From the IMG/VR virus record IMGVR_UViG_2698536348_000008, positions 1 through 7,513 of that record: DNA of 7,513 bases; one strand, written 5' to 3'. The notes beneath the pieces were generated by a model, which was not told where the DNA came from, did no database searches, and was given only the letters and a program-made list of their open reading frames with translations. Position numbers and translations under genes: made by a program. Below, one piece after another: positions 499 to 7,513 of this stretch (position 1 is the first letter of the stretch; each line of letters starts with the position of its first letter). Origin of the DNA: a virus (Duplodnaviria; Heunggongvirae; Uroviricota; Caudoviricetes).

Positions 499-591
499 AT
501 GAGTCTTTTGAATGAAGTTCAGAAATTCATTGAAGCCCATCCGGGGTGTACTTCCGGAGACATTGCGGATGCTTTTTACGTGGGGGCTTAA
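499..591 (+). CDS. Possible small ORF (30 aa, MSLLNEVQKFIEAHPGCTSGDIADAFYVGA) between the replication gene and dam; hypothetical
   Basis: ATG 499-501 lies 2 nt after the upstream stop and is preceded by a G-rich stretch (caggggg). Its stop TAA 589-591 shares a base with the dam ATG at 591 (TAATG). Below the ORF-track length cutoff; no homology recognised. Confidence 0.25.
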   Translation: MSLLNEVQKFIEAHPGCTSGDIADAFYVGA

Positions 592-1244
592 TGAGTAATA
601 AATATTGCCAGGCGCTGGTAGAACTGCGGAACAAACCAGCCCATGAACTGAAGGAAGTGGGCGATCAGTGGCGCACGCCGGACAACATTTTCTGGGGAAT
701 TAACACCTTGTTTGGTCCGTTTGTTCTGGATCTGTTCACTGACGGTGATAACGCCAAATGTGCCGCGTATTACACGGCGGAAGACAACGCGCTGGCGCAT
801 GACTGGTCAGAACGTCTTGCGGAGCTTAAAGGTGCTGCCTTTGGTAATCCCCCATACAGCCGCGCCAGTCAGCATGAGGGGCAATACATCACCGGCATGC
901 GTTACATCATGAAACATGCCAGTGCCATGCGTGATAAGGGCGGGCGCTATGTTTTCCTGATCAAAGCGGCCACCAGCGAAGTGTGGTGGCCGGAAGATGC
1001 AGATCATATTGCTTTTATTCGCGGGCGTATTGGTTTTGAACTGCCAGCCTGGTTTATCCCGAAAGACGAAAAGCAGGTGCCAACAGGTGCTTTCTTCGCT
1101 GGTGCTATTGCTGTTTTCGACAAGACCTGGAAGGGAGCGGCAATCAGCTACATCGGGCGCGATGAACTTGAGGCATGTGGTGAGGCGTTTCTGGCGCAGG
1201 TTCGCCAGCAGGCGGAAAAACTGGTCAGGGAGATGGCGGCATGA
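591..1244 (+). CDS. Phage DNA N6-adenine methyltransferase (Dam-family phage MTase)
   Basis: Translation contains the catalytic motif FGNPPYS (NPPY/DPPY motif IV) and an N-terminal WRTPDNIF segment typical of phage Dam-type MTases. ATG at 591 gives MSNKYCQ...; the ORF-track start at 546 is a GTG with no RBS, so 591 is preferred. Stop overlaps the next gene's start (ATGA at 1241-1244). Confidence 0.8.
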   Translation: MSNKYCQALVELRNKPAHELKEVGDQWRTPDNIFWGINTLFGPFVLDLFTDGDNAKCAAYYTAEDNALAHDWSERLAELKGAAFGNPPYSRASQHEGQYITGMRYIMKHASAMRDKGGRYVFLIKAATSEVWWPEDADHIAFIRGRIGFELPAWFIPKDEKQVPTGAFFAGAIAVFDKTWKGAAISYIGRDELEACGEAFLAQVRQQAEKLVREMAA

Positions 1245-1567
1245 CGACATTAACTCAATGCCAGCAGCAGGTGCTGGATATGCTGATTTCTTATCAGAAA
1301 GAACGTGGCTTCCCGCCAACCAATCAGGAGGTGGCAACCATGCTGGGATACCGTTCGGTGAATGCAGCGGTGGAGCATCTTCGCGCACTGGAGAAAAAAG
1401 GTGTCATCACGATAAAGCGTGGCGTGGCCCGGGGTATCACTCTTCATACCGCGGTGAAGGACGACGACAGCGAGGCGGTCGGGATTATCCGCGCCCTGCT
1501 TGCCGGTGAGGCAAACGCCAGGCTGCGTGCAGCCCACTGGTTACATGAGAGGGGCCTGAAAGTATGA
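1241..1567 (+). CDS. LexA N-terminal DNA-binding-domain-like protein (winged HTH only, no S24 peptidase domain), 108 aa
   Basis: LTQCQQQVLDMLISYQKERGFPPTNQEVATMLGYRSVNAAVEHLRALEKKGVITIKRGVARGITL aligns by eye almost residue-for-residue with E. coli LexA residues ~4-68 ([65 protein letters not shown], recalled from memory). No Ala-Gly cleavage site or Ser/Lys peptidase domain follows. Coupled to neighbours by ATGA overlaps at both ends. Confidence 0.75.
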   Translation: MTTLTQCQQQVLDMLISYQKERGFPPTNQEVATMLGYRSVNAAVEHLRALEKKGVITIKRGVARGITLHTAVKDDDSEAVGIIRALLAGEANARLRAAHWLHERGLKV

Positions 1568-1959
1568 AGCTAATACTGCCTTTTCCGCCCAGCGTGAACA
1601 CGTACTGGCGACACCCCAACAAAGGGGCGTTTGCTGGTAAGAGCCTGATAAGCGCGGCGGGGCGAAAATTCCAGAGCGCGGCGTGTGCAGCAATAGTTGA
1701 GCAGTTACGTCGTCTGCCGAAACCAACGTCGGCACCTGCTTCAGTGGAGATCGTGTTGTTTCCTCCGGATAACCGGATCCGCGATCTGGACAACTATAAC
1801 AAGGCGCTGTTTGACGCCCTGACCCACGCGGGTGTGTGGGAAGACGACAGACAGGTGAAAAGAATGCTGGTGGAGTGGGGACCGGTTATCCCGGAGGGGA
1901 AGGTCGAGATCACTATCAGTAAGTACGAAAAAGCGAGTTGCAAATTAGCAACTCGGTAA
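1564..1959 (+). CDS. rusA: RusA-family crossover junction endodeoxyribonuclease (Holliday junction resolvase)
   Basis: LPFPPSVNTYWRH ... RDLDNYNKALFDALTHAGVWEDDRQV matches the RusA pattern (LPWPPSNNRYYRH ... [26 protein letters not shown] in E. coli RusA, from memory). RBS GAGAGGGG precedes the ATG; typical nin-region position. Confidence 0.85.
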   Translation: MKLILPFPPSVNTYWRHPNKGAFAGKSLISAAGRKFQSAACAAIVEQLRRLPKPTSAPASVEIVLFPPDNRIRDLDNYNKALFDALTHAGVWEDDRQVKRMLVEWGPVIPEGKVEITISKYEKASCKLATR

Positions 1960-2004
1960 CGGAATTGAGCAACACCCTAAATTTGGGTATTACCTCGTTA
2001 AAGA

Positions 2005-2024
2005 TACTGTATTTATGAACAGTG
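2005..2024. promoter_or_regulatory. SOS-box-like (LexA operator-like) site TACTGTATTTATGAACAGTG
   Basis: Perfect CTGT-N8-ACAG core (CTGT 2007-2010, ACAG 2019-2022) with an AT-rich spacer; 16 of 20 positions match the TACTGTATATATATACAGTA consensus by hand. Lies in the 162-bp intergenic region upstream of the KilA-N gene. Confidence 0.4.
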
Positions 2025-2029
2025 TATCC

Positions 2030-2058
2030 TTGATAACTATTAAAAATCGCAGTAAGTT
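2030..2058 (+). promoter_or_regulatory. Candidate sigma70 promoter for the KilA-N/DUF968/Q genes (-35 TTGATA, 17-bp spacer, -10 TAAGTT)
   Basis: Hexamers read by eye: TTGATA at 2030-2035 and TAAGTT at 2053-2058. Weak -10; unverified. Confidence 0.2.
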
Positions 2059-2121
2059 CATCCTGCATCAACGAAAAGGGAGTGCAGTCCCGCTCGTGGA
2101 TAAAAATTTGTGGAGAAACCA

Positions 2122-2938: not shown

Positions 2939-3934
2939 GTGACCGTGAGAGCACTACTGACCCCTGAAATTGCCCCGCGTATGGGGATCGTATTGTTCAG
3001 ACCCGGTTCAGAGCTGATGCCCCTGTTTATGCAGGGGCGTGTCCTGCTGGAGCCTGAGCCGGAACGTTATTCATCTTTTGCCAGTGGTGCCGTTCCGGCA
3101 GCATCACAACCGCTGGCGGATGATCCTGCCGTTCGGGCCGTGTTCCGCAATGAGGCAGTGATCCGTCGTGCTGGTGGCGTGGAATGTCTTGAAAGCTGGT
3201 TACTTCGTGAAAAAGGTTGCCAGTGGCCTCATTCCGACTGGCACAGCGAGAACATGACCACAATGCGACACGCGCCGGGCGCAATCCGTCTGTGCTGGCA
3301 CTGCGATAACCAGCTGCGCGATCAGTTCACGGAACGGCTGGAATCAATGGCAACGGATAACTGTGCCCGCTGGGTGTTGTCTGTTGTGCGTCGGGATCTC
3401 GGTTTTGATGACAGTCACGTTGTGACAATGCCGGAACTGTGCTGGTGGCTGGTTCGTAATGATCTGGCGGATGCCTTACCGGAAAGTGCAGCCCGTAAGG
3501 CACTGAGATTACCGAAGCCTGTTGTGCCGTCTGTCACCCGGGAGAGTGACCTTGTGCCTTCGGTTCCGGCCACCAGCATCATCCAGAATAAAGCGAAAAA
3601 GGTGCTGGCGCTGAAAGTGGATCCGGAGTCGCCGGAGTCTTTTATGTTACGCCCAAAACGTCGCCGCTGGGTTAACGAAAAGTACACGCGCTGGGTTAAG
3701 ACGCAGCCGTGTGCATGTTGTGGAAAGCCTGCTGATGATCCCCACCACCTGATAGGCCACGGTCAGGGGGGAATGGGTACAAAAGCGCATGACCTCTTCG
3801 TGCTGCCTTTGTGCAGAAAGCATCACGACGAGCTGCATGCGGATACCGTGGCATTTGAAGAGAAGTATGGCTCCCAGCTGGAGCTGATATTTCGTTTTAT
3901 CGATCGTGCGCTGGCAATAGGCGTGCTGGCCTGA
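2939..3934 (+). CDS. DUF968-like prophage protein with C-terminal HNH-like Cys/His cluster
   Basis: C-terminal RWVNEKYTRWVKTQPCACCGKPADDPHHLIGHGQGGMGTKAHDLFVLPLCRKHHDELH resembles the conserved core of DUF968 proteins in E. coli prophages (e.g. YdfU-like; memory). Start is uncertain: GTG 2939 sits 1 nt after the upstream stop, and the first ATG is at 2981 with no clear RBS. Confidence 0.6.
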   Translation: MTVRALLTPEIAPRMGIVLFRPGSELMPLFMQGRVLLEPEPERYSSFASGAVPAASQPLADDPAVRAVFRNEAVIRRAGGVECLESWLLREKGCQWPHSDWHSENMTTMRHAPGAIRLCWHCDNQLRDQFTERLESMATDNCARWVLSVVRRDLGFDDSHVVTMPELCWWLVRNDLADALPESAARKALRLPKPVVPSVTRESDLVPSVPATSIIQNKAKKVLALKVDPESPESFMLRPKRRRWVNEKYTRWVKTQPCACCGKPADDPHHLIGHGQGGMGTKAHDLFVLPLCRKHHDELHADTVAFEEKYGSQLELIFRFIDRALAIGVLA

Positions 3935-3951
3935 TTTTGTGGAGAAAGTTG

Positions 3952-4323
3952 ATGCGTGATATTCAAATGGTTCTTGAACGTTGGGGGGCATGGGTGGCAA
4001 ATAATCACGAGGATGTGGAATGGTCATCTGTTGCTGCAGGTTTTAAGGGATTAATTCCTTCGAAAGTAAAATCCCGCCCGCAATGTAGCGATGACGATGG
4101 CCTGATCATTAGCTCTGCGATGACAGTTCTTAAGAAAAAGGAACCGTATCAATACGAATTACTGGAAATGTATTATGTGTATGGGGTTACATTACGGGTG
4201 TTGGGGGTAAAACTGGGGATATCACTTAATCAGGTTGTTATCAGACTGCAGAAAGCTGAAGGGTTTATTGACGGTTGTCTGGCAATGTTGGGGGTATCTT
4301 TAGAAATTGATTGTTACATATAG
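3952..4323 (+). CDS. Antitermination protein Q (QuuD-like short Q)
   Basis: MRDIQMVLERWGAWVANNHEDVEWSSVAAGFKGLIPSKVKSRPQC... closely resembles the DLP12 prophage Q homologue QuuD as I recall it. ATG 3952 has RBS GGAG at 3941-3944; the ORF-track start at 3937 is TTG. Confidence 0.75.
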   Translation: MRDIQMVLERWGAWVANNHEDVEWSSVAAGFKGLIPSKVKSRPQCSDDDGLIISSAMTVLKKKEPYQYELLEMYYVYGVTLRVLGVKLGISLNQVVIRLQKAEGFIDGCLAMLGVSLEIDCYI

Positions 4324-4398
4324 TAATAAATTCAATCAAAGTAAATAATCATATTTTATTATAACCTCCTGATGATACCTGTTCATTGGGAGGTTATT
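4324..4398 (+). promoter_or_regulatory. Q-distal intergenic region: candidate late-promoter (pR'/qut-like) position plus a leader hairpin that pairs with the RBS of the next ORF
   Basis: In lambdoid phages pR'/qut lie directly after Q (established); here 75 AT-rich bp follow the Q stop. ATAACCTCC (4361-4369) is the exact reverse complement of GGAGGTTAT (4389-4397), which contains the RBS of the ORF starting at 4399. Promoter hexamers were not confidently placed. Confidence 0.3.
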
Positions 4399-4632
4399 AT
4401 GGATAAAAATGTAGAGCATGTATTAGTTGATGCAATTGAAAATAAGCAATCTTTAACAGTCGTTTACTTAGGAGGGAGCCAGCCCGGAACATTAAGGAAT
4501 ATTTCTCCGATTAGTATAAATGGGGATAAATTGCGGGCAAGATGCCATAGTTCTGGAGCAGTAAAGGTTTTCAATCTTGGGAAAATACAGTTACCCAGTG
4601 ACTCCTGCGCGGTATCTATGCACTATGGAGAT

Positions 4633-4636
4633 TTAG
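4633..4636. repeat. IS5 target-site duplication, left copy (TTAG)
   Basis: TTAG immediately outside the IS5 left terminus; an identical TTAG flanks the right terminus. IS5 makes 4-bp duplications at YTAR-type targets (established). Confidence 0.85.
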
Positions 4637-4652
4637 GGAAGGTGCGAACAAG
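4637..4652. repeat. IS5 left terminal inverted repeat
   Basis: GGAAGGTGCGAACAAG; its partner at 5816-5831 reverse-complements to GGAAGGTGCGAATAAG. Confidence 0.9.
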
Positions 4653-4659
4653 TTCCTGA

Positions 4660-5685
<1,026 letters not shown>

Positions 5686-5835: not shown

Positions 5836-6344
5836 AAGTTAAAGCTTATGAGACGATGCAGAGCGTAAATGACAACTTTCATGCCCTTTATCCTGAAGGA
5901 CGATGGGGTGTTGATTTTAATGAGCATCGCTTTGCTTTATTTGATTTTTTTAAAAACGGGAAACGAAAAAAAACGGCATTTATGGCAATTGAGTTCAGGG
6001 AAAGAGATGAAGAGAAAATAATAACAGGTGTAACAATTGATATTGGTATATCTGGAACAGTGATTTCTGAGAAGTCCCGAATCCCAAAAAGACGACCATG
6101 GGTAGTGGTTGGTCCCGAACACGGAGAATACAGTACTTATTCAACTTTGGACAAGGCTGCTACAGCGTTTTTTGAGAGGCTTTCGTTGATAGCATCCGGC
6201 CTGGAAGATAATTGATTTTATGTTTGGTATTCAGAGTTCGCCGTGCTTAAGAAAGTCAAGATTCTAAAAATACTGAATGAGCTACTTGTGTTATAACAAA
6301 AATGCTATTAGTGTGTTAAGAGTGGTTACTTCGCCACACAACTT

Positions 6345-6491: not shown

Positions 6492-6689
6492 ATGCTAAAA
6501 CAGCAAGATATGACCGAAACCGCCAGAGTGGTGTTTAATGAATTGAGCGTCACCGAACCGGCGACAGTCGGGGAGATTGCGCAGAATACTTACCTTTCAC
6601 GCGAACGCTGCCAGTTAATACTGACCCAGCTGGTTATGGCGGGTCTGGCAGACTATCAGTTCGGTTGTTACAGACGCCTTCCGCAGTGA
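6492..6689 (+). CDS. Small hypothetical protein (~65 aa) with HTH-like segment
   Basis: The ORF track gives 6468-6689. I prefer ATG 6492 because it is preceded by AAGGGA at a suitable spacing, whereas 6468 has no RBS. TVGEIAQNTYLSRERCQLILTQLVMAGL resembles a helix-turn-helix (pattern only). Ends inside a terminator-like hairpin. Confidence 0.4.
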   Translation: MLKQQDMTETARVVFNELSVTEPATVGEIAQNTYLSRERCQLILTQLVMAGLADYQFGCYRRLPQ

Positions 6690-6699
6690 AGGCTTTTTT
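6676..6699 (+). terminator. Candidate rho-independent terminator (6-bp stem GCCTTC/GAAGGC, 6-nt loop, T6 tract)
   Basis: GCCTTC 6676-6681 pairs with GAAGGC 6688-6693, followed by TTTTTT 6694-6699. The stop codon of the small ORF lies in the loop/stem. Confidence 0.45.
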
Positions 6700-6716
6700 A
6701 TTTGTGGTAAATGGGC

Positions 6717-6747
6717 GGCTGGTGGGTGTTAGGGGCACCCACCAGCC
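6717..6747. repeat. Perfect 12-bp inverted repeat (GGCTGGTGGGTG / CACCCACCAGCC) with 7-nt spacer; each arm contains a Chi octamer
   Basis: Left arm 6717-6728, right arm 6736-6747, exact reverse complements. GCTGGTGG is at 6718-6725 (+ strand) and its complement CCACCAGC at 6739-6746. Confidence 0.6.
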
Positions 6748-6839
6748 ATCTGCTCATGCGTTGGGTTCACAAGCAAACCTCAGGCCCACTGCTTTGCGCA
6801 AAAGCAGAATGAGCCTATCAGAGACAGGCTTAATGATCC

Positions 6840-7513
6840 ATGCTTAATACTGTAAAAATATCCAGTTGTGAGTTAATCAACGCCGACTGCCTGGAATTTA
6901 TCCGGTCGTTACCCGAAAATTCTGTTGACCTGATAGTCACGGACCCGCCGTACTTTAAAGTGAAGCCTGAGGGCTGGGATAACCAGTGGAAGGGCGACGA
7001 TGATTACCTGAAGTGGCTGGACCAGTGTCTGGCGCAGTTCTGGCGGGTGCTGAAACCTGCCGGAAGTCTTTACCTGTTCTGTGGTCATCGCCTGGCATCT
7101 GATATCGAAATCATGATGCGTGAACGCTTCAGTGTGCTGAACCATATTATCTGGGCGAAGCCGTCCGGACGCTGGAACGGATGCAACAAGGAAAGCCTGC
7201 GGGCGTATTTCCCCGCCACAGAGCGCATTCTGTTCGCGGAACATTATCAGGGGCCGTATCGTCCGAAAGATGCCGGGTATGAGGCGAAGGGCAGGGCACT
7301 GAAACAGCATGTGATGGCCCCGCTGATTGCTTACTTTCGTGATGCGCGCGCTGCCCTGGGGATAACGGCAAAACAGATTGCAGATGCCACAGGAAAGAAA
7401 AACATGGTGCCGCACTGGTTCAGTGCCAGTCAGTGGCAGCTACCGAACGAAAGCGATTATCTGAAATTACAGTCGCTGTTTGCCCGGGTGGCAGAAGAGA
7501 AACATCAGCGCGG
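6840..7513 (+). CDS. DNA methyltransferase (N6-adenine/N4-cytosine type, DPPY motif), 5' portion; continues past the window end
   Basis: Not in the ORF track (no stop in window). From ATG 6840 I translated 224 codons without a stop: MLNTVKISSCELINADCLEFIRSLPENSVDLIVTDPPYFKVKPEGWDNQWKGDDDYLKWLDQCLAQFWRVLKPAGSLYLFCGH... The TDPPY motif near the N-terminus and overall pattern resemble YhdJ/phage-type MTases. The minus-strand ORF 6909-7415 overlaps it and is rejected. Confidence 0.8.
   Translation, partial: MLNTVKISSCELINADCLEFIRSLPENSVDLIVTDPPYFKVKPEGWDNQWKGDDDYLKWLDQCLAQFWRVLKPAGSLYLFCGHRLASDIEIMMRERFSVLNHIIWAKPSGRWNGCNKESLRAYFPATERILFAEHYQGPYRPKDAGYEAKGRALKQHVMAPLIAYFRDARAALGITAKQIADATGKKNMVPHWFSASQWQLPNESDYLKLQSLFARVAEEKHQR

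Follow-up and report, generated by a model that had tools for sequence, protein, structure and literature searches.

Chromosomal SOS boxes usually overlap the -35 region, the -10 region or the +1 position of the promoter. Placing a LexA box before a promoter is also an established means of linking prophage genes to the SOS response, and the antirepressors Tum of phage 186 and AntC of phage N15 are LexA-controlled cases of this kind. [quoted passage not shown] Phage GIL01 encodes gp6, a truncated LexA homologue that activates promoter P3 from position -43.5, this promoter being also under repression by host LexA (PMC6182141). Prophage promoter boxes have also been classified by their heterology index (HI) with PSOSP, the HI classes of which agreed with all 24 of the experimentally tested K-12 sites (PMC12527982). 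The locus described below carries a LexA-type box before a gene block for which such wiring had not been described.

The DNA analysed (referred to below as the window; 7513 nt) belongs to a lambdoid prophage of E. coli. Its closest match was E. coli TOE17 (99.3% identity over 3.2 kb), and the relatives of the phage include SfIV, PhiR49_1, SfII and the Stx2 phages. Parts of the wider gene block were matched in 3765 genomes. The coordinates of the relevant features are collected in Table 1. The gene coding for the KilA-N protein, which is also annotated in RefSeq relatives, is the first downstream of the box and is preceded by the Shine-Dalgarno sequence GGAGA (2112-2116). In the RefSeq relatives, Q starts at the position equivalent to 3952. 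The Pfam matches and these relatives bear out the block of KilA-N, DUF968 and Q genes that had been described in a sequence-only reading of the same DNA. Farther downstream, an IS5-type transposase (4705-5685) splits a phrog_8498/WYL-like gene into an N-terminal part (4372-4656) and a C-terminal part (5856-6212); relatives free of the IS have a single 618-bp gene at this place.

Table 1. Features of the window, in order of position (HI, heterology index)
Feature	Position	Strand	Score or basis
Dam methylase	546-1244	+	annotation
Phage LexA-like protein, 108 aa	1241-1567	+	Pfam PF01726, 2.9e-19
RusA	1564-1959	+	annotation
Inverted repeat CGAGTTGC-AAATTA-GCAACTCG, rusA 3′ end	1934-1955		terminator-like on minus strand only
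rusA/kilA-N intergenic region, 163 bp	between RusA and KilA-N genes		
Alternative promoter TTGGGT-16-TACTGT	1983-2010	+	6.3 bits, about 99.9th percentile of window
20-bp LexA (SOS) box TACTGTATTTATGAACAGTG	2005-2024		HI 7.26
Predicted sigma-70 promoter TTGATA-17-TAAGTT	2030-2035, 2053-2058	+	11.4 bits; predicted start near 2065
5′-UTR hairpin ACGA..GGGA-GTGCAG-TCCC..TCGT	2071-2097	+	inner stem/loop 2078-2091
KilA-N domain protein, 271 aa	2122-2937	+	Pfam PF04383, 1.3e-15; phrog_129 'transcriptional regulator'
DUF968/HNH-like protein (YdfU family)	2939/2945-3934	+	Pfam PF06147, 1.5e-81; phrog_96
Antiterminator Q	3937/3952-4323	+	Pfam PF06530, 1.5e-47
N6/N4 DNA methyltransferase gene	ATG 6840, runs beyond 7513		start within window
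Second LexA-type box TACTGTAAAAATATCCAGTT	6848-6867		HI 5.50, stronger than kilA-N box

The sequence-only reading had pointed to a palindrome with a CTGT-N8-ACAG core, and inspection of the sequence found it as stated, the core and its AT-rich spacer (CTGTATTTATGAACAG) occupying positions 2007-2022. This core is present once in the window, where 0.12 copies are expected by chance, and at least one copy appeared in 22 of 200 shuffles; the earlier hand estimate of about 0.1 chance cores per 7.5 kb was thus close to the computed value. The complete 20-bp box was scored by its HI, using a Lewis-type matrix regressed from 140 published sequence/HI pairs (PSOSP Table S1, PMC12527982). The fit was additive per position and palindromic, with a residual of 1e-4, and the recovered matrix reproduced the values for recA (4.31), umuDC (2.77), sulA (4.65) and polB (12.09). 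The table is uninformative for positions 3-5 and 16-18 (CTG and CAG); the maximal penalty was assumed for them when scanning other DNA, which leaves the score of the box unaffected. The LexA-binding range was taken as an HI below about 12.6-15, the binding class of PSOSP reaching up to 13.6.

The HI of the box lies between those of uvrA/ssb (6.98), yebG (7.04) and lexA-2 (8.32), and inside the LexA-binding cluster of the PSOSP table (Mean Shift class 0, up to 13.6). None of 3000 mononucleotide shuffles of the window contained a site scoring 7.26 or lower, and 0.7% contained one at HI ≤ 10. The box is the sole site at HI ≤ 12.5 in each of two complete phage genomes, SfIV (39.8 kb) and PhiR49_1 (45.3 kb); the SfIV copy is a G20A variant with a better score than that of the window (HI 4.93). 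The hosts, E. coli and Shigella, have a LexA that uses the CTGT-N8-ACAG motif. The matrix check proposed in the earlier reading therefore returned the score of a genuine SOS box, and the observation is statistically much stronger than the first estimate. The same 20-mer was also found in an unrelated GC-rich genome (L259), where it forms half of a tandem box by a P4-type integrase; this occurrence was set aside as coincidental. A search of the literature returned no LexA binding or expression data for the 2005-2024 site, and nothing linking LexA to KilA-N, DUF968, SfIV or this box; two candidate papers (PMC9879122 and PMC9928086) were discarded as they concern other genes.

A candidate -35 hexamer, TTGATA, had been noted just downstream of the palindrome. 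It turned out to be part of TTGATA-17-TAAGTT, the top-scoring + strand promoter candidate of the entire window in a log-odds model, albeit a rough one, the hexamer frequencies of which come from published compilations. A stricter consensus scan with a cut-off of nine matches out of 12 returned no intergenic promoter, TTGATA-17-TAAGTT having eight; the promoter call therefore rests on the log-odds model plus conservation. When six diverged intergenic regions were aligned (59% mean column identity), T2053, A2054 and T2058 (the TAnnnT of the -10 region) were invariant. The predicted promoter was therefore taken as real. In the same alignment, a palindrome ending in CAGTG lies 5 bp upstream of a TTGA -35 both in the window and in Raoultella (L085), while in a further locus (L042) the palindrome aligns and the -35 reads ATGCTC. 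The homologous palindromes of these two loci are only borderline LexA sites (HI 13.6-13.8).

The box ends 5 bp before the predicted -35 region and 98 bp upstream of the start codon. Relative to the predicted start it covers positions of about -60 to -41 and is centred near -50.5, and does not overlap the core promoter. This position would be unusual for repression by occlusion, and would suit an activator as well. LexA bound at the box could interfere with the upstream contacts of the alpha subunit or with sigma region 4; given the unusual upstream position, the mechanism is uncertain. The regulation at the kilA-N promoter would presumably be repression. The left arm of the box may, in addition, serve as the -10 region of the weaker promoter TTGGGT-16-TACTGT.

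The 5′-UTR of kilA-N includes a hairpin with an invariant TGCAG loop located 15-25 nt upstream of the Shine-Dalgarno sequence, with TACGG or TGCGG loops instead in Proteus, Morganella and Providencia. Nineteen distinct versions of it were found across genera, 15 of which have stems of at least 4 bp (versus 8.5% of flank-shuffled controls). The stems covary, and no T-run is present. The hairpin also occurs in an allele of the locus that lacks the box (see below), there falling within the end of rusA. In Rfam and tRNA scans of the window, this hairpin and an element upstream of the methylase gene (see below) both remained below threshold.

The Q gene lies 1.8 kb downstream of the box on the same strand. 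No strong terminator was found between kilA-N and Q, so read-through is possible and the kilA-N transcript might extend to Q. The Q alleles downstream of the box cassette range from 45 to 100% identity and vary independently of the cassette, while DUF968 and KilA-N are paired across Proteus, Morganella, Erwinia, Pantoea and other genera. The conserved unit is made up of the box, kilA-N and DUF968. The idea that host LexA, or the phage LexA-like protein, gates Q in response to DNA damage stands only in part: the SOS-box score, the promoter and the LexA-like gene favour it, whereas Q is variable and falls outside the conserved unit.

Pfam and phrog searches with the KilA-N protein gave no match to an antirepressor family (ANT; GfoA/GftA/Tum/AntC). 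Its C-terminal half had no Pfam match, and no relative was found among the PDB sequences. PADLOC placed KilA-N and DUF968 outside the catalogued defence systems, with only a weak PDC-S22 match to the KilA-N domain. To our knowledge, no antirepressor activity has been reported for this KilA-N protein. The repressors of the three box-bearing prophages checked (the TOE17 prophage, SfIV and PhiR49_1) all contain a Peptidase_S24 domain. Being of this type, they imply that SOS already induces these phages via cI cleavage, and with self-cleaving cognate repressors an antirepressor role of the Gifsy type is not required. An antirepressor module of the Gifsy/186/N15 type was rejected on the basis of the S24-type repressors and the missing antirepressor family match.

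The box is carried on a cassette that was found exclusively in the chromosomes and phages of E. coli and Shigella, and is present in 186 of 5426 complete E. coli genomes (about 3%). It begins at the inverted repeat that closes rusA, which is followed by a T-run on the minus strand. The second KilA-N allele, about 70% identical and located at the same position, has a 19-bp gap to rusA and lacks both the box and the whole intergenic region; it is the commoner of the two (carriers include Stx2a_1447, SfII, mEp460 and PhiR40_1), and it diverges from the window from about position 1932 onward. As to whether homologous prophages keep the site, the answer was thus divided: the box is intact in 96 of the 97 viral-contig copies of the cassette (94 identical and two improved; the remaining one has a broken CAG), while the commoner allele has none. 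Since the box-less allele works without box or promoter, regulation through the box is dispensable for this type of phage. The intergenic region is at least 99% identical in 178 of the 186 cassette-bearing E. coli genomes. Footprinting within the cassette was tried and given up as powerless, the 97 viral-contig copies and 204 E. coli places being near-identical throughout; with the whole intergenic region near-invariant, close relatives give no box-specific evidence of selection. In some box-bearing loci (L001-L003, L029, L032, L037, L040 and others) kilA-N and DUF968 are separated by an additional segment of about 536 bp, located at about 3814-4353 in locus coordinates, so that DUF968 starts at 4354 and not at 3818. 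In some, 11 bp are also missing between the UTR hairpin and the Shine-Dalgarno sequence, which places the box at -106 rather than -117.

More distant relatives were more informative. The regions upstream of KilA-N homologues (-170 to -30; 32 distinct regions) were surveyed for LexA-type sites, the expected numbers being obtained from random windows of the same loci. Four of the 32 contained a site at HI ≤ 10 (0.07 expected), and eight contained one at HI ≤ 14 (0.2 expected). As two of the four sites at HI ≤ 10 are indel variants of the box of the window, these represent three independent boxes. Only eight sites at HI ≤ 11 were present in 483 kb of loci from other genera, and two of them lie upstream of KilA-N homologues, at -83 in Edwardsiella (HI 8.5) and at -75 in Erwinia (HI 9.9). 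The Erwinia box overlaps the -10 region of a strong TTGCCA-17-TATATT promoter and has no phage LexA-like gene nearby; judging from its layout, this is the classical arrangement for repression by host LexA. The recurrence across genera is the best evidence for a selected LexA control of the KilA-N family.

The phage LexA-like protein invoked in the sequence-only reading is indeed encoded two genes upstream of kilA-N, with its recognition helix conserved. It consists of a LexA DNA-binding domain (PF01726, residues 1-65) and a conserved tail of about 40 amino acids, and aligns without gaps to residues 2-70 of E. coli LexA. The DNA-contact residues in helix III of LexA are Ser39, Asn41, Ala42, Glu44 and Glu45 (PMC3091678). 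The phage protein keeps four of these five base contacts (S39, N41, A42 and E45), and has V in place of E44. A Pfam search found no S24 peptidase domain, and the catalytic Ser119 and Lys156 of LexA are missing. HMMER aligned a stretch of the phage protein, LLAGE, with the cleavage-site motif VAAGE of LexA. The tail (…LLAGE(E/A)NARLRA..WLHERG.KV) is common to homologues of the LexA-like protein that are only 45-67% identical. An AlphaFold2 prediction from the single sequence had a mean pLDDT of 52, with values below 50 in the tail, and was uninformative on dimerisation.

The start and stop codons of the LexA-like gene overlap those of its neighbours; the protein is therefore probably made with the early genes, and absent from the lysogen. 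In the window, 440 bp separate the gene from the box downstream, and 78 of the 85 box-bearing loci with enough flanking sequence have it in this position. It was missing from the other seven, and it is also common beside the box-less allele (SfII, Stx2a and mEp460), which indicates that neither element needs the other. A comparison of recognition-helix variants (E, D, A, T or G at position 45) with the palindromes upstream of kilA-N found no clear co-variation, the lineages being too few.

The site at 2005-2024 is very likely a genuine LexA-family operator located at a real internal promoter. We favour, with moderate confidence, the reading that this box is a LexA operator that renders the kilA-N/DUF968 transcript, possibly including Q, responsive to SOS. 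The palindrome would be an operator for LexA-family proteins on an internal promoter of a lambdoid prophage. In the lysogen, where no LexA-type protein other than that of the host is expected, host LexA would occupy positions 2005-2024, where it would probably overlap the upstream contact zone of the TTGATA-17-TAAGTT promoter. This promoter would drive kilA-N, DUF968 and possibly Q. Upon DNA damage, self-cleavage of LexA would vacate the box, and the transcript would rise independently of the main early promoter. The binding of LexA, the transcription start and the read-through to Q are steps that we infer. Binding of LexA to the box, as such, seems more probable than repression by host LexA.

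Other readings of the box were considered. That it is a chance palindrome not bound by LexA in vivo is barely credible: while chance would supply 0.12 copies of the bare 16-bp core per window, the HI of 7.26 was not reached in any of the 3000 shuffles, the HI classes were right for the 24 tested K-12 sites (PMC12527982), no other such site occurs in the complete phage genomes, and similar sites are enriched across genera. It is quite unlikely that LexA binds with little or no consequence, the box being a decoy or a relic that travels with a recombining cassette, and the genes being expressed essentially by read-through from the early promoter, as for the box-less allele. The box-less allele does show that kilA-N, DUF968 and Q can function without a promoter of their own, the box lies outside the core promoter, and the self-cleaving S24 repressors already provide induction by SOS via cI. 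However, the independent boxes of Edwardsiella and Erwinia and the overall enrichment argue for selection; moreover, the -10 region is conserved, and of the three copies in which the box varies, two have a better one. We consider very improbable a control by the box of a short minus-strand RNA, an antisense or small RNA opposite to the end of rusA and terminating at the hairpin 1955-1934. Two candidate promoters for it, TTGATG(2071)-17-GATTTT(2048) and TTATCA(2036)-19-TACAGT(2011), scored 9.3 and 6.8 bits, and the hairpin, terminator-like and with its T-run on the minus strand only, is specific to the box cassette. Yet this hairpin was not kept in L085 or L042, the terminator-like matches (three, versus 1.0 ± 0.9 in shuffles) were not in excess, and neither a credible minus-strand gene nor an Rfam match was found.

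The uncleavable LexA-like protein of the phage could also be the main user of the box, either activating the promoter or repressing it anew after the loss of host LexA; this possibility is a tentative one, on the unlikely side. It would be compatible with host LexA binding in the lysogen, the phage protein being made from the early operon after induction or infection. A DNA-binding domain with four of the five helix III contacts and no cleavage domain fits such a role, as do the presence of its gene 440 bp upstream in 78 of 85 loci and the precedent of gp6, a truncated LexA homologue that activates P3 from -43.5 (PMC6182141). A centre at about -50.5, abutting the -35 region, is more activator-like than repressor-like, although it is out of helical phase with the classical activator positions -41.5 and -61.5. 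In very small numbers, the palindrome was found upstream of the -35 region in loci with the LexA-like gene (the window, L042 and L085), and over the -10 region in loci without it (L105 and L108); nevertheless, the gene is equally common by the box-less allele and is lacking at seven box loci, and no co-variation of helix and palindrome was found among the few lineages. Furthermore, LexA dimerises through its C-terminal domain, which is absent here, the tail of the phage protein being predicted with a pLDDT below 50, and, unlike that of gp6, the site would have to be shared with host LexA.

Other LexA-type boxes were detected in these phages. The second box of the window (TACTGTAAAAATATCCAGTT) lies within codons 3-9 (NTVKISS) of the N6/N4 DNA methyltransferase gene. 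Equivalent boxes (HI 6.84) are present in the same codons of the methyltransferase in Kluyvera (L083), Rosenbergiella (L091) and Providencia (L110), in which the flanking DNA and protein have diverged. The arrangement suggests that the phage methylase may be controlled by SOS. Immediately upstream of the methylase start, a non-coding element containing GCCCACTGCTTTGCGCAAAAGCAGAATGAGCCTATCAGAG (6780-6839) is kept across four genera while its surroundings have diverged. The element holds a small hairpin. Preceding it are a strong terminator (about 6675-6700) and, at 6716-6750, a long GC-rich hairpin. A further, very strong box (TACTGTTTTTACATACAGTA, HI 3.31) was found inside the cI-like repressor gene of the E. 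coli TOE17 prophage (L161, 1587-1606), which is of the same type as that of the window, at a place outside the window. The box falls in the stretch that encodes the HTH-S24 interdomain linker (peptide SNTVCKNSI), where its reading frame is that of the methylase box, and it recurs in 18 viral loci.

A relay of two LexA proteins could be envisaged, although we regard it as unlikely. In the lysogen, host LexA would sit on up to three phage boxes, namely the one in the cI stretch for the linker, the one before kilA-N and the one within codons 3-9 of the late-region methyltransferase gene. Once SOS has destroyed host LexA, the uncleavable LexA-domain protein of the phage, made from the early operon, would take over these boxes, at kilA-N from an activator-like position just upstream of the -35 region, and possibly act on the host SOS regulon too. 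If true, it would give GIL01 gp6 a counterpart in a lambdoid phage of a Gram-negative host, one sharing its operator with the host repressor.

Should the favoured reading, SOS-responsive control of kilA-N and DUF968 by host LexA, be correct, a subset of E. coli and Shigella prophages, together with the serotype-converting phage SfIV, would answer the SOS response of the host directly, beside the cleavage of cI. KilA-N, the HNH-like DUF968 protein and perhaps Q would be switched on by SOS, a new example of LexA wiring in a lambdoid phage. The alleles with and without the box provide a natural pair for asking what a direct SOS control of the widespread KilA-N/DUF968 pair achieves. Given the uncleavable LexA-domain protein encoded nearby, it is also conceivable that the phage itself manipulates SOS boxes. 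Since the Stx2 phages looked at carry the box-less allele, a direct link to the release of Shiga toxin is unsupported.

Compared with described systems, the site would fall in the LexA-binding class of PSOSP, which scores prophage promoter boxes by the same HI (PMC12527982); PSOSP is a generic classifier, and this box, its gene block and its geometry are not described there. The E. coli boxes of medium strength (uvrA/ssb, yebG and lexA-2) belong to the same palindrome class, TACTGT-(AT-rich 8)-ACAGTx, and have a comparable HI. Those boxes are located at repair genes and overlap the -35, -10 or +1 positions, whereas that of the window belongs to a mobile prophage cassette, with 5 bp between it and the predicted -35 region. 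With GIL01, the locus has in common a truncated LexA homologue, reduced to the DNA-binding domain, and a host-LexA box at an internal promoter directed toward late functions. However, gp6 binds its own palindrome (GaCACAC GTGTGaC) at -43.5, apart from the host dinBoxes, while the window has a single host-consensus site that is centred at about -50.5 and adjoins the predicted -35 region, not overlapping it. Unlike GIL01, the phage of the window is a lambdoid one of a Gram-negative host with a classical cI. With Gifsy, the locus shares its setting, a lambdoid prophage whose LexA box lies outside the immunity region and in the interval between the replication genes and Q, with a hairpin on its 5′ side and a small operon of its own. 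The operons differ, coding for KilA-N (271 aa) and DUF968/HNH in the window and for a small antirepressor and DinI in Gifsy, and so do the repressors, which contain Peptidase_S24 in the prophages of the window type and are not cleaved in Gifsy. The Gifsy model is therefore a good analogy for the position and logic of this box, rather than a sign of membership in the same family.
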